A DNA stretch of 64,000 nucleotides from contig OZ252100.1 in assembly GCA_965248435.1 (NCBI GenBank), forward strand, positions 2,144,001-2,208,000, written 5' to 3'. The position numbers and the translations under genes were made by a program. Source of the DNA: Candidatus Latescibacterota bacterium. Its GTDB lineage: Bacteria; Latescibacterota; UBA2968; GCA-2709665. Below are positions 2,861-44,123 of this stretch, one piece after another (the stretch's first letter is position 1; every line of letters starts with the position of its first letter). The notes beneath the pieces were generated by a model. The model searched no databases. It had not been told where the DNA came from and worked only from the letters and a program-made list of their open reading frames with translations.

Positions 2861-3013
2861 CGCAGGGGCCCTGGTAGGTGCCTTCGAGGCCTGAAAGTCC
2901 CCCCAGGCAAGGTGAAAGGCGGATCGCCCCTATCTGGTATGCTTTTCGCTTAATGCTATCCGGTTGAGAGGCCCACGATCTAGGACCGACGAACCACGAT
3001 TCACGGTTTCTTC

Positions 3014-3042
3014 TTGACCGGGTCATCTAAATTCTCTATCTT
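3014..3042 (+). promoter_or_regulatory. Sigma70-type promoter for flgM-like gene
   Basis: TTGACC-17 bp-TATCTT, about 30 nt before ATG 3072. Confidence 0.55.
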
Positions 3043-3071
3043 AAGGTATCCTTTTTTAAGGTACTTCGACA

Positions 3072-3451: not shown

Positions 3452-3460
3452 GTCATCTAA

Positions 3461-3487
3461 AGAGACGCCCCACCGGGGCGTCTCTAC
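3461..3487 (-). repeat. GTAG-type REP-like palindrome
   Basis: Minus strand GTAGAGACGCCCCGGTGGGGCGTCTCT; related copies at 14056, 28908, 32126, 44098. Confidence 0.8.
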
Positions 3488-7900: not shown

Positions 7901-8974
7901 GCTCGTCATCTCCTTCAGCTGCACGAACCGACGCACCTGGGCACCTCGATCCCCTTTCTTGGCCGCTTCGATCTGACCCACCTTCAGTTTGGCCACATAT
8001 TCGAGCTGCTCGGGAGACCCGAACAGTCGGCTGCGAACGCGGTTTGCGGTGGAGACGATGTTGGCATCCGCCTCCTTGAAAATCTCGATCTCGACGCTCT
8101 CCACGCCGTTCACCCGGGTAATCACCTCACGCTCTTTGTGAGCGCGCGAGACGTTCGCCACGTCCTTGAGCCGGATCTCGACTCCCTCCCGCTCACCGAC
8201 CACCAGGGCGCCGACCTCGTCCAACGACTGAAATTCGTTCAGCGTACGGACCAGGTACTGGGTCTGGGCGTCAAGCAGGCTGCCCCCTGCCAGGTTTACG
8301 TTCTCTTCGCGCAGCCGCCGGCTGATGTCGGCGATTCCGAGGCCCAGCAGGGCCAGCTGGCCTTCATCCACATCCACGCGAATCTCTTCCTCGAGGCCTC
8401 CGTGGACGCGTGCGGCCGCCACTCCTTTTAGGGCCTCCAGCTCCTGCCTGATTTCATCTTCTGCGATCTGCCTGAGGGAGTAGAGGTCCCCGCCGCTGTA
8501 AAGGCCCACGCGCATAATGGGGTCCTGTGTGGGATCGTATCGCAGGATCAGCGGTCGGTTGACCCCTTCGGGGAGGCGCAGGCGATCCAGGTTCTCCCTC
8601 GCCGTCTGCACGGCGTCGTTCATATCCGTGTCCCAGCCGAACTCCAGGATCACGTCGGAGACGCCGGCCCGAGAAATGGAGACGATGCTGACCAGGTTGT
8701 TCAACACGCCGAGGCGCTGCTCGATCGGGCGGGAAATCAGGTTCTCCACCTCCTCGGGCGCAGTGTCCGGGTACTCTGTGCGGATCGTCACTGTCGGGTA
8801 GGAGAGTTCAGGCATCAGAGTGAGGGCAAGCTGCTGATAGGAGATGTAGCCGAACACGGCCACGGCGACCACAACCATGAAAATGGCCACGGGCCTGCGG
8901 GTCGTGATTTCGAAGGTTCTCGAAATCTCCGACGGGCGGTCCTCTACCGGTCGACTTTCAGGCGATTCGTTCAT
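4976..8974 (-). CDS. RND permease (AcrB/AcrD/AcrF family), 1332 aa, with large hydrophobic insertion
   Basis: RRPVAIFM, GMLVDNSIVVLE, GIVVNNAIVMVD, RFRPIVMTT, MAIAVVAGL motifs. Confidence 0.95.
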   Translation of the reverse strand: MNESPESRPVEDRPSEISRTFEITTRRPVAIFMVVVAVAVFGYISYQQLALTLMPELSYPTVTIRTEYPDTAPEEVENLISRPIEQRLGVLNNLVSIVSISRAGVSDVILEFGWDTDMNDAVQTARENLDRLRLPEGVNRPLILRYDPTQDPIMRVGLYSGGDLYSLRQIAEDEIRQELEALKGVAAARVHGGLEEEIRVDVDEGQLALLGLGIADISRRLREENVNLAGGSLLDAQTQYLVRTLNEFQSLDEVGALVVGEREGVEIRLKDVANVSRAHKEREVITRVNGVESVEIEIFKEADANIVSTANRVRSRLFGSPEQLEYVAKLKVGQIEAAKKGDRGAQVRRFVQLKEMTSFIQYSLPAGMEMEVLSDQSRFIEGSVNEVKRTAVIGGLLAILVLYVFLRNPINTAIVGLAIPISVVATFAPMKIFDVSLNIMSLGGLALGIGMLVDNSIVVLESIFRCREEGDDIVSAAIRGTGEVGGAVFASTLTTVAVFFPIVFVEGVAGQVFGDMALTVVFSLIASLGVALFFIPMLASRRIQMGGSAGPGLSSGRVGEMTRSEVLQLWSLEKLRSVRTERERGGDFATFLAWILLLILCVIVEFVVRALWILVAAVIVLLKMVFVVLAVVPYFPAAAGVQRLRKRGGPGPIWDAICSWGTDRDLFKRRFARTIWDDLLSFTAPESLGSDIGPALRWSLGSMRRVVRWALQGGLGARSLRSLPTLLTLVLLAALFVLTPFYLFARFVIFLAVASAGKVLVLALLLVFLAGMASLILLGLLILPILAPILFLFERGFDPLSRSYPTGLRWALQNPARVLLTALALFAACWFLLLPRIGSELIPQVHQGEFNLEMAMPVGTPLRATNEMAQRLESRVNAEQGIARVASVVGVDRLAITSENQGEHTAKVTVALEEDGLEKSSASRVLRRLGSLPAEIWGGVTGESLLAQREQALMDRLRSALRDLPQVKIDFSRTDLFTTKTPIEVEIRGNDLQSLGQLGRDAEVALSGIPGLYDVKSSLQRGSPEVQIVYQRDLLAKFGLNLRSVASLVREKVQGEVATRFREAERRIDMLVRVNEADRASVADLRRLIVNPDGEVPIPLSAVADIHVKEGPSEIRRIDQQRAVKVSANVSGFDLGTVTGKIQRALEGMDVPQDVNILIGGQNREMQTSLDSLAFALGLAIFLVYIVMASQFESFSHPLIIIFTIPLALIGVILVLYLLGISLSVVVFLGLIMLAGIVVNNAIVMVDYINRLRRGGMAKFDAIAQAASVRFRPIVMTTSTTVLGLLPMALGLGEGAEIRTPMAIAVVAGLISATVLTLVIIPTVYSLVDRGD

Positions 8975-8979
8975 GTCTG

Positions 8980-10242
8980 CTACTCCTCTTGCGTCGTATC
9001 TGCCTCGGCCGGGATTCGGAGGCCCTCGCCCTCGATAACCCGAATCCGGGCCTGGTCCTTCAATCCGTTCTGTCCGACCACGACGATCCGCTCATCGTGA
9101 GACAGGCCCGAAACCACTTCCAGGTGTTCGCTGTCTTCGAATCCTATCTCCAGCTTGACCTGCTTGGCAATCGTATCATCAACCACGAACACGTGCGGCA
9201 ATCCGTCGTCGTAAACAACGGCACGCTTCGGGACGAGCACGGCTTGATCGTGGGTGGCGGTGATGATATGGGCGTTCACGAACATTCCAGGCCGAAGCTG
9301 TCCATCCTCATCTTCCAGCCCCAGCGTAACCTTGAACGTCCCGCTGCTCGGGTCCACGACCGGACTGATCCGGATAACGCTCGCGGCGAACGCCGCTCCG
9401 GGGAGGAAATCGGTCGTCACCTGAGCGCGCTGCCCGGCGCGCACCTTCATCATCTCTCTCCCGGGGACGAACACGCGAGAGATCAAGTTCTCCATGTTGA
9501 CCATGGCGTAGAGCTTTTCGCTCGGACCGATTCGATCCCCGATCTTGACGATCCGCTCCGCGATCACGCCACCCACAGGTGCGCGCACGCTTGCGTGGGC
9601 CAGCGCCAGCCTGGCCCGCTCCCACACGACCCGGGCCTGGTCCAGGTCGTAGCGCTGCTGTTCATACTCCTCGTTCGAGAGCAGTTTCCGGCTGAACATC
9701 TCTTCCTTTCGCCGGAACTGGCTCTCCAGCTTTTGGAATTTGATCCTGGCCTCGGCCGCGGACAGCTTCAGATCGTCGTCCACGAGCTTGACCAGCACCT
9801 GCCCCCGATCTACGACGTCCCCTTCCTCGACGAGTACGACGCTCACCAGCCCGGTCGCCCGGGCGTAGACGTCCACGGCCTCCTCCGCCTCCACTGTGGC
9901 GCTGAAGAGCAGATAGTCCGAGATCTCGCCAATCGTCACGGGGGACACCTTCACCGGTACCCCTTCGGGCGCCTTTTTGTCCTCTTTTTCCGCAGTCGTG
10001 TCGACCTGAGTCGTATCGGTCTTGGCATCACCCTCCTTCTTCTCCTCTCCCGCCTCCCCCCCACAGGCCGTAAACATCAAGGAGATCAAGAGCAATGCCA
10101 CCAAATGGTTGTCAATCAGCGTGTCCACGCCACGCACGGCCCATCTGATACCCCGCAGGCTTCCCATACTGCGCCTCCTGTCAAAATGTCTTGCTTCCAT
10201 CCCGACTCCCCGGCTTGCGCTTCTCATCTTTGTACCTTTCAA
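8980..10242 (-). CDS. RND periplasmic adaptor (membrane fusion protein)
   Basis: VEEGDVVDRGQVL lipoyl motif, VRAPVGG, PVVDPSSGTF, LRPGMF; lipobox FTAC; true start may be ATG 10227 or 10167. Confidence 0.93.
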   Translation of the reverse strand: MKGTKMRSASRGVGMEARHFDRRRSMGSLRGIRWAVRGVDTLIDNHLVALLLISLMFTACGGEAGEEKKEGDAKTDTTQVDTTAEKEDKKAPEGVPVKVSPVTIGEISDYLLFSATVEAEEAVDVYARATGLVSVVLVEEGDVVDRGQVLVKLVDDDLKLSAAEARIKFQKLESQFRRKEEMFSRKLLSNEEYEQQRYDLDQARVVWERARLALAHASVRAPVGGVIAERIVKIGDRIGPSEKLYAMVNMENLISRVFVPGREMMKVRAGQRAQVTTDFLPGAAFAASVIRISPVVDPSSGTFKVTLGLEDEDGQLRPGMFVNAHIITATHDQAVLVPKRAVVYDDGLPHVFVVDDTIAKQVKLEIGFEDSEHLEVVSGLSHDERIVVVGQNGLKDQARIRVIEGEGLRIPAEADTTQEE

Positions 10243-10348
10243 GAACCAGCCTCTTTGATCTTTTTTCGTGCTGAATTGTTTCAGGACTCATCGGTCCTCG
10301 AACACAACAAAATAGCAACAATCTTGTAGTGGGTGTTCGACTACAACG

Positions 10349-10376
10349 AAAAACGCCATCCAGAAAAGGATGGCGT
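10349..10376 (-). terminator. Intrinsic terminator within leader A
   Basis: Minus strand ACGCCATCC-ttttct-GGATGGCGT-TTTT; identical hairpin at 36433-36456. Confidence 0.85.
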
Positions 10377-10614
10377 CGAACAAACGTCATATCCACCTTC
10401 CCCAGACACGGTTCGGCTCAGCAAAAGCCGAGCCCCGGTGCCCTGGAGAAGGGGTTGCGCAATCTCAAGCGAGGAAAGTCCCACTGGTACTCCGTAATCG
10501 CGGCAAGTATCTCCTCCAGTGCTAGCCGATATGCCAGCGCAGAAGCATCTGATTCAACTTACATACCTCCATTTAACGGTTCCTTTTTCGTGGTCCAGGG
10601 GTCTCAATTTGATG
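10349..10614 (-). promoter_or_regulatory. Structured 5' leader / candidate attenuator (copy A) of the MFP-RND-TolC operon
   Basis: Collinear conserved blocks shared with 36429-36680; uORF 10522-10557; alternative pairings. Confidence 0.65.
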
Positions 10615-10618
10615 GTCT

Positions 10619-10647
10619 AACATACAATCTATCGGGAGCGAAGTCAA
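10619..10647 (-). promoter_or_regulatory. Sigma70-type promoter of leader A
   Basis: TTGACT-17 bp-TATGTT; same hexamers and spacing as 36685-36713. Confidence 0.8.
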
Positions 10648-14055: not shown

Positions 14056-14102
14056 GTAGAGACGTCCCGGCGGGGCGTCTCACCCCGGTGGGCCGTTTCT
14101 AC
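14056..14102. repeat. GTAG-type REP-like palindrome (compound)
   Basis: GTAGAGACGTCCCGGCGGGGCGTCTC followed by a partial second copy ending TCTAC. Confidence 0.7.
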
Positions 14103-17296: not shown

Positions 17297-18351
17297 CCCG
17301 AGTTCAATAAGGAAGTGCAACACTTAGGGTAGCAACTGTCCTATCCTAAGTGTATGGGAAACAATTACAAGCATCTTACGATAGACGAACGCGAGCAGAT
17401 TGCGCTTTGTCGAGCCACTGGTGCAAGCCTTAGAGATATTGCCAAGGCCCTTGACCGGAGCGCCAGCACGATTTCAAGAGAGTTGAAACGTAATCCGTCC
17501 CCGATAGCTGAGAGTTACTCGGGCCTCCAGGCTCACAGAAGGGCTGAGAAACGTAAGCGGGAGGCCGGCAAGCGGAAACGGCTGAAGAATCCGGTTATCC
17601 GGCGATATGTCGAGACCAAACTCAAGCAAGGATGGTCTCCCGAGTTGATCGCTGGGAGGCTTCCCGAGGAGCGTCCGAGCGCGGGTATCAGCCACGAAGC
17701 CATCTACCAGTATATCTACGATCCAAAGGTGCACAAGCAGCGGGATCTGGTTGCTTGCTTATCCCGAGCTCACAAAAAACGAAAGCCGCGGTGGCATACC
17801 CGAAAACACCGGGAAAGCCACATTCCAGGCCGTATTTCGATCGATCGACGTCCCCGTTACATCGAAAAACGGAAACAACCTGGCCACTGGGAATCCGACA
17901 CCATCATCTCTCGTGAGAGCAAACAGGCCGTTGGCGCTTGTCTTGAGCGATCGTCGAGATACCTACACCTGGCTAAGCTGGCAAAGAACGGACCCTCGGA
18001 GGTCGCCGAAGCGATTAATCGACGCCTTGGGCGACATCCTCCCCACATGAGGAAGAGCATCACATATGACAACGGATCCGAAAACGGCCAACATCAACGG
18101 GTCAACGAGGTGCTTGGCACCAAATCCTATTTCTGCAAACCGTTCCACAGCTGGGAGCGAGGCGCTGTGGAAAACGCTATCGGTCTGGTCCGCAGATACC
18201 TCCCCAAGAAGACAGACTTCTCAAAGGTCAGCAAACACGAGTTAAAGAAAATTCAGAACCGGATCAACAACCGACCAAGAAAATGTCTTAACTTCAAAAC
18301 ACCAGCTGAAGTCTTCAAGTCCAAGTGTTGCACTTAGTCATTGAATCCAGC
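17297..18351 (+). mobile_element. IS30-family insertion sequence
   Basis: Imperfect terminal inverted repeats sharing TTCAAT-N4-AAGTGCAACACTT; TAT on both flanks (3-bp target duplication); lower GC. Confidence 0.88.
17354..18337 (+). CDS. IS30-family transposase
   Basis: YKHLTIDER..IA..LDRSASTISRELKRN HTH; WSPELIAG; GHWESDT, ITYDNGSE, WERGAVEN, INNRPRKCL. Confidence 0.95.
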   Translation: MGNNYKHLTIDEREQIALCRATGASLRDIAKALDRSASTISRELKRNPSPIAESYSGLQAHRRAEKRKREAGKRKRLKNPVIRRYVETKLKQGWSPELIAGRLPEERPSAGISHEAIYQYIYDPKVHKQRDLVACLSRAHKKRKPRWHTRKHRESHIPGRISIDRRPRYIEKRKQPGHWESDTIISRESKQAVGACLERSSRYLHLAKLAKNGPSEVAEAINRRLGRHPPHMRKSITYDNGSENGQHQRVNEVLGTKSYFCKPFHSWERGAVENAIGLVRRYLPKKTDFSKVSKHELKKIQNRINNRPRKCLNFKTPAEVFKSKCCT

Positions 18352-21642: not shown

Positions 21643-24600
21643 TTAGTCAGCCGGCTCTGGACTCCGGTAGGCAATCGGCCTGGTGCGCGACAGTGCACCT
21701 GACACGATCCGGCGCAGGGCCAAACGCAGATCGTCCAGGTAGGTATAGAAGAGCGGTACGACGAACAGCGTCAGAAATGTCGCGCAGAGCAGTCCGCCGA
21801 TCATCGTCCGGCCCATGGGTGCGTAGGGAATGCCCATCATCGTGCTCGTTCCAAGCGCCATCGGGAGCAGCCCGAACACCGTCGTGAAGGTCGTCATCAG
21901 GATCGGCCGGAACCGGTTGGCGCCCGCTTCCAGAATCGCCTCCGTCCGAGTCCTGCCTTCTGTCCGCAGCCGGTTGACCATGTCGACAAGCACGATCGCG
22001 TTGTTCACGACAACACCGATCAACACGATGATCCCCACCTGGGCCATCTGCCCCATCACCGTACCGGTGAGGTAGAGCATCCAGTAGACACCCAGGAACG
22101 CGAACGGGATGCAGAAGAGAACGGAAAAGGGCAGGAGAAACGACTCGAACAGGACGCCCATTAACAGAAATACGCATGTGATGGCCATCATCACGGCGAA
22201 TCCCATCGTCTCCTCCGATTCCTTGAACTTGGTAAACCGCTCGCCCCGGTCCCACGAATAGCCGTGCGGCAGTTCGAAACCTTCCATCGCGCGACCGATC
22301 TCTTCATACAGGCCTTTCAGGTCGTCTTCCGTCGTAAAAATCTTCAACACCAGCCGGATCTTCCCGTTTGCTCGATAGATTTTCCACGCGCCTTTAGCGA
22401 CTTCGAACGAGGCGAAAGCCGACAGGGGAACCAGCTCACCCGATTTCGAGGGGAAGGTGAAGTTTTTCAGCTGTTCCAAAGTCTGGCGATCCAACTTCCT
22501 CAGATAGAGTCGCACGCCGACTTCCCGCTCGTCGGAACGGTATCGAGGCAGCTTTACGCCACCGAGCTGGTAGGTAATGCTCTTTGCCACGACCTGTGAC
22601 GCAATCCCGTGCTTGCGGGCGAGCCCTCGGTCGATGTGTACCTGCACCTCGTTCTCCCCTCGCTCCATATCGCTCAGAATCCCGACGACCGAAGGGAGGC
22701 TCTCCAGGCGAAGCTCGATCTCATCGAGCAGTTCGGCCCCCATCTCCAGATCATCTCCCCACAGCATGAGGTTTATGTAGGGGTTGCTTCCACCTCCCGA
22801 CTCGACGACGACCTGGTTTCCCACAAACCGTGGCATGTTCTTTCTCAAATCTTCGATCACGGCCTTTCGATCCATCCGGCCGTCGATCGTGGCGCCGGCA
22901 CGGTTTCTCACCTCTCTGTACACCTGATACCACCACGCGCGGTTCTCATCCTCTTCTAAGAAGACGCGAAAGTAGAGACGCGACCCGCCGGTGACCCTGT
23001 AGCGAAGCTGCACGGTCCGTATGCTGTAGACCTCTCTCTTGCTGTCCAGGAAGGCCTCGATTTCAGCCCCGAGATCGCTGATATCCTTTCTGGTGAAAAA
23101 CGGCGGCGTTGCGACCCGGATTCTGATGTCGTTGAGGTTTCCGCGCATCGAATCCGATCGTTTGATCTGCCCCATCGGATAGACCATCGTCGCAGACAGG
23201 AGCAGCACGATCAGAACGGCATCCTTCCGATGGGCAAGCGACCAGGCCAGCCCCCTTCCGTAACCCCTTCGGGCCCAGCCGATTGAACTTTGCTCTCCTT
23301 TCGTCGTGGTACCTCCGAATCGCTTCGCCGCGAGGGGAATGAAGAACATCGCCACGAAGAGAGACGCCAGCAGAGCCACGATGATCGGCATGCCGATCCT
23401 GGAAAGAAAGAAGGAGAGCTCAACTTCGCTGCTCATCAGCATGAGCGGGAGAAACACGACCACGGTCGTCAGCGTCGCAATCGCGATCGCAAGACCAACC
23501 TCGCTCGCGCCGCGGATCGACGCTTCGTGCGGGTCTCCCCCTTTGACGCGCATTCGGTGGATATTTTCTACGACAACGATCGCATTATCGACCACCATCC
23601 CGATCGCTACCATAAGTCCCATCATCGTCAAAAGATTCAGGGTCCAACCCACGAAGTAGAGGGTGGCAACTGCGGTCATCACACAGAACGGGATGGCCAG
23701 TGTGATCAGCGCCGTCATGCGCACACCGCGAAGGAAAAAGAGAAGCACCAGACCCGCGAACAGCCCGCCCACAAACCGGTGTCTCCGAGATTTTCGATGG
23801 ATTCGCTGATGAGCTGACCCTGGTCGAAGTAGGTCCTGAATTTGACGTCGGTCCGGGCCTCGATCCGCCTCAACTCCGTCTCTACTTTCCGAGAAACTAG
23901 ATGTTCGTGCCCGGCTCTCGATGGACCCCAAGCCCGACGCCCGACCGGCCGTCCATCCTGAGGTTCCAGTAAGTGAAAGGCACGTCATAAAACACATTAG
24001 CGACTTCCTCTACCCTTACCGTGCCCTTCCGGTTTCGAATCGGGATACGCTCGAACTCGTCCAGGCTGCCGTACCGGGCCACAGATCTCACGTAGAACTT
24101 CTTGCCCCCTTCGTGCACGGCACCGCCGCCCATCTCGAAGTTGTCCTCCCGCAGGGTTTGCACGAGATCGTAAGCACCCACACCTCGTGTCTGAAGCCGC
24201 TCCTGGTCGAGCTCGACCACGACTTCCTTCTCAGGGGCCCCCCAGATCCGAACACCAGCGACCCCATCGATCCGCTCCAAGGAACGCTGGACGTTCGTCT
24301 GAACGAATGCGTGAGGGTGTTCGACCTCATCTGGAATCGAAACCCCGATCCAGAGGATGTTTTCGTCCGTGTCTTTGTTGTACTTCCAGATTCCGACGTT
24401 GTCGCGGGTTTCCCGAGGCAGCACAAGTTTCAAGCGCTCCACCGCGTCCACAACCTGGTTATAGGCAATGGTCATGTCCACGTCGTTCCGAAATTCAAGG
24501 CGCGCGTTCGCACCCCAGATTCCACAGCTCGACCACAGCAGCCGCAACCCTTTTACCGTCTGCAAGTGCTCGACCATAGGCTGCGAGATCTGCTCGTCAT

Positions 24601-24811
24601 TCTCTCTCGGGGAGCTGTTCTCCTGCGAACCCGCCCACACCCAGAGCTGCTTCCGCTCTAGCCCGGAGGGGAACGCCTCCATCTGAATTCGAGTCAGCGC
24701 CACGATGCCCACCACAAGCAGCGCCGCGAGACACATCGTCACCGTCACGGGGCGGCTCACTGAAATGCGCGGCAGAAGAGAGCCTCTATGTTCTTTGACT
24801 TGCTTATTCAT
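21643..24811 (-). pseudogene. RND permease, array paralog 4, frameshifted (or assembly indels)
   Basis: Split into ORFs 23897-24811 and 21643-23997; homology continues in a third frame between lesions near 23897 and 23768. Confidence 0.8.
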
Positions 24812-28907: not shown

Positions 28908-28937
28908 GTAGAGACGCCCCGGTAGGGCGTCTCCTAC
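28908..28937 (+). repeat. GTAG-type REP-like palindrome
   Basis: GTAGAGACGCCCCGGTAGGGCGTCTCCTAC. Confidence 0.8.
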
Positions 28938-32125: not shown

Positions 32126-32151
32126 GTAGAGACGCCCCGGTGGGGCGTCTC
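32126..32151 (+). repeat. GTAG-type REP-like palindrome
   Basis: GTAGAGACGCCCCGGTGGGGCGTCTC. Confidence 0.8.
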
Positions 32152-32155
32152 CTGA

Positions 32156-36360: not shown

Positions 36361-36428
36361 ATGCTTTAACCTACCTGCAAGAATAGCCACAGCATCCGCG
36401 TCGTGCCGTGGCTTGGGGGGTATAAAAC

Positions 36429-36457
36429 AAAAACGCCATCCAGAAAAGGATGGCGTT
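36429..36457 (-). terminator. Intrinsic terminator within leader B
   Basis: Minus strand AACGCCATCC-ttttct-GGATGGCGTT-TTTGTTTT. Confidence 0.85.
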
Positions 36458-36680
36458 AAACGCAATCGCTCCCCCAGACACGAGTCGGTTCAGTAAGAAC
36501 CGGGACCTGGCGTCCTGGAGAAGCGGGTGTATTGACTTGACCGAAGAATGTCGCATCGGAGTTGACAAACGCGGGTCGTGTGTTCTCCAGAACTACGGCT
36601 GATGACAGCGCATAAACTTCATAAGTGCTTGAACGCCTCCGTTTTTGCGTAGCTAGAGTGCTAGGGGTCTCATTTCGATG
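36429..36680 (-). promoter_or_regulatory. Structured 5' leader / candidate attenuator (copy B) of the RND array
   Basis: Homologous to 10349-10614; uORF 36593-36622 MKFMRCHQP*. Confidence 0.65.
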
Positions 36681-36684
36681 AATT

Positions 36685-36713
36685 AACATACAATTTGCGA
36701 CCCGTTAAGTCAA
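36685..36713 (-). promoter_or_regulatory. Sigma70-type promoter of leader B
   Basis: TTGACT-17 bp-TATGTT. Confidence 0.8.
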
Positions 36714-44097: not shown

Positions 44098-44123
44098 GAG
44101 ACGCCCCGGTGGGGCGTCTCTAC
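44098..44123. repeat. GTAG-type REP-like palindrome
   Basis: GAGACGCCCCGGTGGGGCGTCTCTAC. Confidence 0.8.

Follow-up and report, generated by a model that had tools for sequence, protein, structure and literature searches.

The genome of an uncultured marine bacterium of the candidate phylum Latescibacterota contains two copies of a unit of about 270 bases, each with its own predicted promoter and terminator, next to genes for permeases of the RND (resistance-nodulation-division) family. Both copies lie on a 64,000-nucleotide stretch (contig OZ252100.1, positions 2,144,001 to 2,208,000), which is the window analyzed here and from whose first letter all positions below are counted. Judged by its sequence, the unit is a real, constrained, and new RNA unit. 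The reading that we tentatively prefer is that of a portable promoter-leader-terminator cassette acting in cis as a transcription attenuator on the downstream genes. Four observations would speak for control in cis, namely the position of copy B, where no other promoter is found, the co-orientation of both copies with the next operon, the complementarity among the conserved blocks, and a candidate antiterminator that is longer than first described. An earlier note on this DNA had already proposed a duplicated leader with a switchable terminator.

Make-up, age, and constraint of the duplicated unit

Copies A (10349-10647) and B (36429-36713) are collinear when read on the minus strand and share, in this order, a 5' block, GGAGG, TGCGCTGKCAT, TAG-NN-CTGGAG, CTTCTCCAGG, a small hairpin, GTGTCTGGGGRAG, and the terminator, while the spacers between these blocks have diverged. 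All of the blocks listed in the earlier note were thus found again at their positions, and the duplication itself stood; the limits of the unit had to be corrected, as its ends coincide exactly with the −35 hexamer and the U run. Over this span, A and B are identical at 212 of 269 aligned positions, and no homology extends upstream or downstream of it; a block common to both copies behind the terminator (TGTKGCTAT...) is at chance level by a rough estimate. A BLAST search of copy A against its own genome returned B with an E value of 3e-15 and no further copy.

Each copy begins with the promoter-like site TTGACT-17-TATGTT (10619-10647 in A, 36685-36713 in B, minus strand), whose presence in both copies had been claimed before and which a promoter scan of a 600-800-nt region around each copy returned as the sole minus-strand site of its kind. 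Its hexamers are unchanged in all three copies known (for the third, see below). In this genome, sigma-70-type promoter motifs have a density of 2.33 per 10 kb over the 250 nt that precede long open reading frames (ORFs) as compared to 0.08 per 10 kb inside them, a roughly 30-fold difference, and motif starts of Shine-Dalgarno type accumulate in the −15 bin (37 %) and the −10 bin (25 %) of 2850 ORFs against a background of about 8 %; both enrichments indicate that the host uses sigma-70-type promoters and Shine-Dalgarno sites. At the other end, a terminator scan placed an intrinsic terminator including its U run at 10347-10377 (A) and 36428-36457 (B). The two terminators are, as the earlier note had it, identical letter by letter, loop included (10377-10352 and 36457-36432), with a 10-pair stem, a 6-nt loop, and a U run; the energy of the hairpin lies between −17.3 and −17.7 kcal/mol across the copies (−17.7 kcal/mol in A). 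From these two ends we infer the start and the end of the transcript. As whole RNAs, A and B each fold better than 200 of 200 dinucleotide shuffles (z −3.5 and −3.9).

A third copy was found in one other genome of the same genus (hereafter the sister species), where it represents the ortholog of A: it has the corresponding position between an RND gene and an adaptor gene and shares 245 of 293 aligned positions with A. It is the sole full copy that BLAST detected in 61 related genomes; the same search gave 16 short matches (28-35 nt, E about 0.005), seven of which were inspected and lie in a coding-like conserved stretch. A covariance model built from the three copies found full-length matches in only two of 22 family genomes, and likewise in only two of 151 genomes sampled from the phylum, in each case the host and its congener, and its remaining matches comprised the terminator alone or a single local match of 23.5 bits. 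The model scores copy B with 255 bits, a value that is expected and not independent because B is one of its three training sequences. A search of metagenome contigs with a terminator pattern yielded eight loci, none with the remainder of the unit, and a three-block pattern in genome contigs matched one locus, that of the congener. Degenerate copies were absent from the window and from 39 kb of the congener in a filter-off search. The collection of homologs called for in the earlier note has produced one new member, and the covariation rests on three sequences. The unit matches no known family, in line with the earlier expectation: the Rfam 15 covariance models gave no match in the whole window at gathering thresholds, and at E values up to 10 around both copies they gave just three chance-level matches of 11-16 bits, as compared to thresholds of 37-191 bits.

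The ortholog (211 of 271 positions identical) and A are equally distant from copy B, which dates the duplication to before the two species separated. Copy B has been kept in the host ever since; the sister species lacks it. Over the unit, A and its ortholog align with a z of 30, while the adjacent 200 nt of upstream spacer cannot be aligned (z 2.3), and this difference across species implies that the unit is under constraint.

Of nine public sequencing runs listed as containing the stretch, none is of RNA. Contigs of public runs gave two observations. One contig of 1228 nt is the sister-species form and adds nothing new. The contigs of four other runs match the start region of the adaptor gene behind copy A at 95-99 % or better and then diverge into 52-255 unlike letters, from position 10320 in one contig and from 10333 in three, which share the same continuation; the point of divergence (10320-10333) lies just downstream of terminator A, and the contigs are short and were partly inspected. 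From such sequences it appears that close relatives may lack the unit, or have it replaced, at the site of copy A.

Predicted alternative pairings in the leader

In the cassette as we picture it, a sigma-70-type promoter would drive a structured leader of about 230 nt that ends in an intrinsic terminator, and its segment 2 would choose between segments 1 and 3 as partner. Pairing of 2 with 3, the state of lowest energy, would be followed by the terminator hairpin and give an RNA of about 265 nt. Pairing of 1 with 2 would leave segment 3 free while the 5' arm and loop of the terminator (segment 4) are synthesized, so that a 15-bp antiterminator could form and transcription could read through, at B into the oxidoreductase gene and the RND array, at A into the adaptor-RND-outer-membrane operon, where it would add to the operon's own promoter. 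Switching and read-through are what we infer from the pairings and computed energies that follow.

Segment 1 (CTGGAGGAG, 10511-10519 in A; 36585-36590 in B by alignment) and segment 2 (CTTCTCCAGG, 10442-10451 in A; 36514-36523 in B) form a helix of 12 pairs, to which seven more can be added with the 3' end of a short upstream ORF; one pair of this helix (112:192) is changed on both sides. Segment 2 can equally pair with segment 3, as the earlier note had seen by eye. Of the 11 pairs of this 2:3 helix nine never vary, and one is a mismatch in the ortholog; it exceeds expectation in all copies, as only 13 (A), 42 (ortholog), and 2 (B) of 1000 shuffles reach it. Between segments 2 and 3 stands the small hairpin, here P3 (10414-10430 in A; 36486-36502 in B by the consensus fold), which was also part of the original description and which has six pairs, all of them fully paired across the copies, with both arms altered between A and B and one compensatory pair (206:216). 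The helices 1:2 and P3 and the terminator recur throughout.

The consensus fold adds a helix that the earlier pairing scheme had missed. This scheme was sound in the two partners it gave to segment 2 but incomplete for segment 3, which has a third partner in the conserved 5' block (10595-10614 in A; 36661-36680 in B by alignment), i. e., the predicted 5' end of the RNA. The 3' half of this block can pair with segment 3 to form P1, in which 91.7 % of cells are paired and one column pair (36:229) reads GU, GC, and AU in the three copies. P1 is marginal against shuffles (81, 166, and 18 of 1000 for A, ortholog, and B, respectively); in the proposed cassette it would serve as a lock that favors termination. 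Taken together, the conserved positions cluster in mutually complementary blocks (the 5' block, segments 1-3, and the arm and loop of the terminator), and since this is the pattern that alternative pairings predict, it favors an attenuator.

Energies agree with termination as the default. Copy A attains its minimum energy (−102.2 kcal/mol) with 2:3 and the terminator; for the ortholog and B, this combination reaches −102.7 and −87.4 kcal/mol as compared to minima of −105.0 and −88.0 kcal/mol, and these minimum folds keep most of it. P1 and 1:2 together with the terminator cost 5-9 kcal/mol more than the minimum. As long as segment 3 has yet to be transcribed, the growing RNA of A and B adopts 1:2 at equilibrium (9 and 11 of 12 pairs, respectively). 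Constrained folding of both states, as suggested earlier, thus bore out the termination state as the favored one but put the read-through state (1:2 with 3:4) well above it.

The pairing of segment 3 with the terminator, first described with 11 bp, extends to 15 bp when only the part from segment 3 to the U run is folded. Segment 3 and its 3' extension (10393-10409 in A; segment 3 of B at 36469-36481, both by local folding) form the 5' strand of this candidate antiterminator; three further pairs past a bulged U cover 6 of the 10 nt of the terminator 5' arm in A and the ortholog, and B reaches the entire arm via a different small helix. The local energies of the antiterminator are −17.9, −25.3, and −17.8 kcal/mol in the three copies; the local terminator state has −21.6 kcal/mol in A and −20.9 kcal/mol in B, and in the ortholog the antiterminator itself is the local minimum. 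As long as the 3' arm of the terminator is missing, pairing of segment 3 with the 5' arm and loop already yields −11.6 to −14.8 kcal/mol. Each of the 15 antiterminator pairs is paired in all of its filled cells, and the terminator differs among the three copies by a single substitution, an A that is G in the ortholog, where the partner strand has C for U and the U-A pair thereby becomes C-G. The claim that segment 3 pairs with the terminator thus gained length and a compensatory change but does not rise above shuffled sequences, and from this modeling we consider the 15-bp antiterminator plausible, better than the one first described, and not established.

Several of the computed results weigh against the attenuator. 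When the whole RNA of any of the three copies is folded, the read-through state comes out 7-14 kcal/mol less stable than the minimum, every low-energy state retains the terminator, and at equilibrium 1:2 gives way to 2:3 once segment 3 has been made; the minimum-energy folds of the ortholog never contain 1:2 (0 of 12 pairs). The 1:2 helix goes beyond shuffles in B (19 of 1000) but not in A (170 of 1000) or the ortholog (420 of 1000). P1, 1:2, and P3 have one pair each that is changed on both sides, which 47 of 500 shuffles of the three sequences match, and the whole read-through structure is reached by 27 of 500. Nor does the best duplex that the upstream RNA can form with the region of the terminator surpass those of shuffled controls: after shuffling of the upstream sequence, fractions of 0.37, 0.028, and 0.24 did as well in the three copies.

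The permanence of the terminator in the computed folds also agrees with another function, by which the unit would be constitutive punctuation: a terminator with a restart promoter and a fixed low read-through that senses no signal, ending transcription from the MFS gene in front of B or from the RND array in front of A, with the RNA structure as a by-product or related to stability. The location of the copies at the head and near the end of a 26-kb same-strand array would suit such a role, and so would the U run, which has only five U before an interruption; such a run suggests incomplete termination. A bare promoter and terminator would not, however, need some 200 nt of block-wise conservation older than the species split, and other junctions of the array carry a different, genome-wide hairpin repeat, so that we regard mere punctuation as improbable.

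As to the input, the cassette would be controlled by whatever occupies segment 1, for which a ribosome on the short ORF would be the likeliest candidate, or else a bound factor or small molecule. The ORF spans 10522-10572 in A, where it has 16 codons (11 from a TTG at 10557), the translation MEVCKLNQMLLRWHIG* from the ATG at 10572, and a GGAGG at 10566-10570; in B it spans 36593-36622 with nine codons (MKFMRCHQP*) and a GGAGG at 36636-36640, 13 nt 5' of the ATG. The ortholog has the same 16-codon frame as A. In all three copies the TAG stop lies 2 nt before segment 1, so that the placement noted earlier for the duplicated copies extends to the ortholog, and a ribosome at this codon would mask the 5' strand of helix 1:2 in its extended form. 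The idea of ribosome sensing has in its favor this placement of the stop, while conservation of the peptide and Shine-Dalgarno spacing count against it. A and the ortholog differ in 9 of their 16 codons, each time with another residue, so that the peptide is not conserved, and the letters at the 3' end of the ORF also form one strand of a helix, i. e., RNA structure explains their conservation as well as coding does. In B and the ortholog, 13-14 nt separate GGAGG from the ATG, a spacing that the −15 to −6 window of this genome does not include, and the only start that is well spaced from GGAGG is the TTG of A. Moreover, an ATG-started ORF of at least eight codons before a given stop arises by chance with a frequency of 0.17 (composition of A) or 0.11 (composition of B) in simulations. 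From the sequences, ribosome sensing is possible, if weakly supported, and that the ribosome is indeed the input of the attenuator appears rather unlikely.

Reading by eye disclosed a second small frame at 10468-10509 (minus strand) and in the ortholog (positions ~1647-1688 of locus L011). It starts with a TTG 6 nt after the GGAGG of segment 1, has 13 codons, and shows three silent and three replacing differences between the two; it is absent from B, which has GAC at the start position and a 1-nt deletion. An ATG-TAA immediately 3' of the first GGAGG is present in A and the ortholog only.

Genomic setting of the two copies

Reading from 36360 down to 3545, the window contains a 33-kb cluster in which all genes but one lie on the minus strand, comprising a GFO/IDH/MocA oxidoreductase gene, seven adaptor-less tandem RND permease genes, copy A, and then genes for an adaptor, an RND permease, and a TolC-like protein. 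Copy B directly follows an MFS gene and heads the 26-kb RND array, with its terminator 68 nt before the ATG of the oxidoreductase gene (36360) and no other promoter-like site in that gap; copy A stands near the end of the array, where it separates the last of the adaptor-less RND genes from the adaptor gene (ATG at 10227). Both are co-oriented with the operon that follows and within about 120 nt of its first gene. The earlier assignment of the unit to RND operons is therefore true as regards its upstream position but is weakened by two circumstances. First, eight of the approximately 18 RND genes of the genome are concentrated in this one array, so that almost any minus-strand gap there would adjoin RND genes, and the remaining RND loci are without the unit. 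Second, the operon behind copy A has a promoter-like motif of its own.

This two-block motif (GAAAC-N18-ATCAAA, 10254-10282, minus strand) is located outside the duplicated unit, between terminator A and the adaptor gene, and ends 27 nt before the ATG at 10227. Orthologs of the adaptor gene occur in 21 of 21 other family genomes with 59-84 % identity, and a motif of GAAAC, 17-19 nt, and [GA]TC[AG]AA precedes this gene at each of the 21 family loci examined (L051-L071), among them that of the host, in many cases directly 3' of a T run. Its layout presumably resembles that of promoters for ECF-type (extracytoplasmic function) sigma factors. A loose pattern for a wider regulon of the motif matched 24 places in the genome, about as many as expected by chance on a rough estimate. 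Nineteen of the 21 loci, which come from other genera, have the motif and lack the unit; it follows that the adaptor operon does not need the unit, and judging from this comparison the adaptor-RND-TolC operon is older than the unit and very likely has its own start site. In addition, the sister species has a similar RND array and an ortholog of the oxidoreductase gene with no unit upstream of it, the latter a further point against an attenuator. So is the fact that the genes downstream of A and B are unrelated, the homology between the copies ending at the U run; in this respect the unit behaves like a separate gene.

A separate gene is what is assumed if the unit encodes a stand-alone small RNA of about 265 nt that is always terminated and acts in trans, presumably by base-pairing via its conserved 5' end or C/U-rich blocks, its adjacency to pump genes merely reflecting the site of duplication. 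The homology between the copies, which spans exactly promoter to terminator and leaves the downstream genes unrelated, is what such a gene would show, and so is the invariance of terminator and loop between A and B. The minimum fold, with a looser 5' half, a long 2:3 hairpin capped by P3, and the terminator, has a layout common among small RNAs, and the first ~17 nt of the predicted RNA are conserved with about 12 of them unpaired in the consensus fold. The motif that the adaptor operon possesses behind copy A, as well as the operons of other genera and the oxidoreductase ortholog of the sister species, which all manage without the unit, point in the same direction. Conversely, no second promoter is seen in the 68 nt that separate terminator B from the gene at the head of the array, both copies are co-oriented with a next gene at most about 120 nt away, and mutually complementary conserved blocks would be needless for a single stable fold. 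A crude duplex scan of 34 start regions identified no target and was uninformative owing to huge loops. Neither an Hfq nor a CsrA gene was found in this 97 %-complete genome, neither of which is obligatory for a small RNA. On balance, the stand-alone RNA is possible yet doubtful. By our analysis, the two readings are compatible as well, as a terminated leader may also act in trans.

Two particular kinds of small RNA were considered and dismissed. For a sponge of the CsrB/RsmZ type, the genome offers no match to CsrA, while control genomes do match (the three copies have 10, 5, and 10 GGA per ~290 nt). An Hfq-dependent RNA was rejected for the corresponding lack of a match to Hfq, which leaves the Hfq-independent type unaffected.

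A protein-coding gene on one of the strands, or a functionless relic of a mobile element, we deem very improbable. It could draw on an antisense frame of ~107-125 codons that is open across A and, in another register, across the ortholog, and on the gene for an IS30-like transposase inside the array. This register shift, however, together with stops in all three frames of B, led us to reject an antisense protein, and the ORFs on the sense strand have at most 16 codons and encode peptides that are not conserved. The unit is also far better conserved than the neighboring spacer, and a relic is hard to reconcile with only two copies in the genome and no terminal repeats noted.

Among the genes of the cluster, the adaptor scores above the cut-off of TIGR01730, and the RND permease that follows it has 1332 residues with a large insertion. 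The transposase gene (17354-18337, plus strand; an HTH_38 and a weak rve domain) is inserted between two RND genes, and the RND series is also broken by an ORF of 279 codons that matches no family and that we take, from reading its sequence, to encode a sugar-isomerase-like enzyme. One RND gene (21643-24811, minus strand) is split, with the N-terminal 292 and the C-terminal 679 profile positions in separate open frames, which is a frameshift, a broken gene, or an assembly error. A GC-rich palindromic hairpin of 23 nt with 10-bp arms and a 3-nt loop recurs between array genes (3459-3486, 14057-14081, 28908-28934, 32126-32152, and 44098-44122, the last followed by a T run); a simple pattern finds it at 43 places in the genome, a number that marks it as a REP-like (repetitive extragenic palindromic) repeat. 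In the sister species, a repeat of ~110 nt that is unrelated to the unit occurs upstream of the head of the RND array and of the oxidoreductase ortholog (8550-8660 of locus L082 and ~2960-3060 of locus L085).

Known leaders and implications for the pump array

The literature on leader-peptide attenuation in connection with RND efflux, and on riboswitches in the phylum, yielded no description of the unit, which does not prove its absence there. Functional counterparts exist nonetheless. In Bacillus subtilis, the bmrB leader controls the multidrug ABC transporter BmrCD by ribosome-mediated transcription attenuation (PMC4191407). Like the unit, it has a short ORF before genes for a transporter and can form alternative stem-loops, one of them an intrinsic terminator, and in both the translation of the leader is proposed to decide on read-through. 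On the other hand, the bmrB terminator lies inside the leader ORF, while some 150 nt separate the end of the ORF of the unit from its terminator, and for the ABC transporter experiments demonstrated induction by drugs that target the ribosome, whereas the present case concerns RND genes and sequence data; the two leaders have no sequence similarity.

Closer in terms of the pump is the leader peptide PA5471.1, encoded before armZ of Pseudomonas aeruginosa; its control of the RND pump MexXY is indirect, in an arrangement that a review describes as apparently unique to this pump (PMC12057347). Here too, a leader peptide is followed by predicted terminators, stalling is proposed to cause read-through, and the output is an RND pump. 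It differs in regulating an anti-repressor and not the pump genes, directly before which the unit is placed, and it stems from another phylum and has no homology to the unit.

With trp-type attenuators, the unit shares the logic of 1:2, 2:3, and terminator as well as a stop codon just before a pairing segment; its ORF, however, has no run of regulatory codons, its downstream genes are not biosynthetic, and its terminator is a separate hairpin that has no strand in common with 2:3. The attenuator-derived small RNA rnTrpL of Sinorhizobium meliloti is moreover reported to act on an RND-pump operon (PMC7298713, PMC7968998) and illustrates how a terminated leader may itself act in trans, which would reconcile the two leading readings of the unit.

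Riboswitches with a terminator as expression platform likewise have leaders of 200-300 nt, in which a closing helix (here the 5' block with segment 3) surrounds two helices and the 3' strand of this closing helix can alternatively pair with the 5' arm of the terminator. They are set apart by the lack of an Rfam match even at E values up to 10, and three sequences from one genus give neither an aptamer consensus nor a ligand. As far as sequences allow us to judge, the unit would work like the bmrB, PA5471.1, and trp-type leaders but is unrelated to them; it is a new sequence family of a known kind.

In its most specific form, the attenuator would be a translation-sensing cassette, complete with promoter, short ORF, four-segment switch, and terminator, that stands in duplicate at either end of the 26-kb series of adaptor-less RND paralogs, such that a loss of translation capacity would turn on the whole battery. 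We consider this version unlikely; if true, it would represent a direct RND counterpart of the known control of ABC and MFS pumps, with, e. g., natural ribosome inhibitors as trigger, and the first regulatory RNA described in this candidate phylum. With three copies in one genus and an uncultured host, the general importance of the unit is limited for the time being. Should it act in trans, it would be the first small-RNA candidate for the phylum. Should the attenuator work as we tentatively propose, an uncultured marine lineage would run an unusually large RND battery by an RNA switch and not by a repressor protein, and control by leaders, which in the sources considered here is otherwise known for RND pumps in the indirect form of MexXY regulation through armZ, would extend directly to the pump genes.

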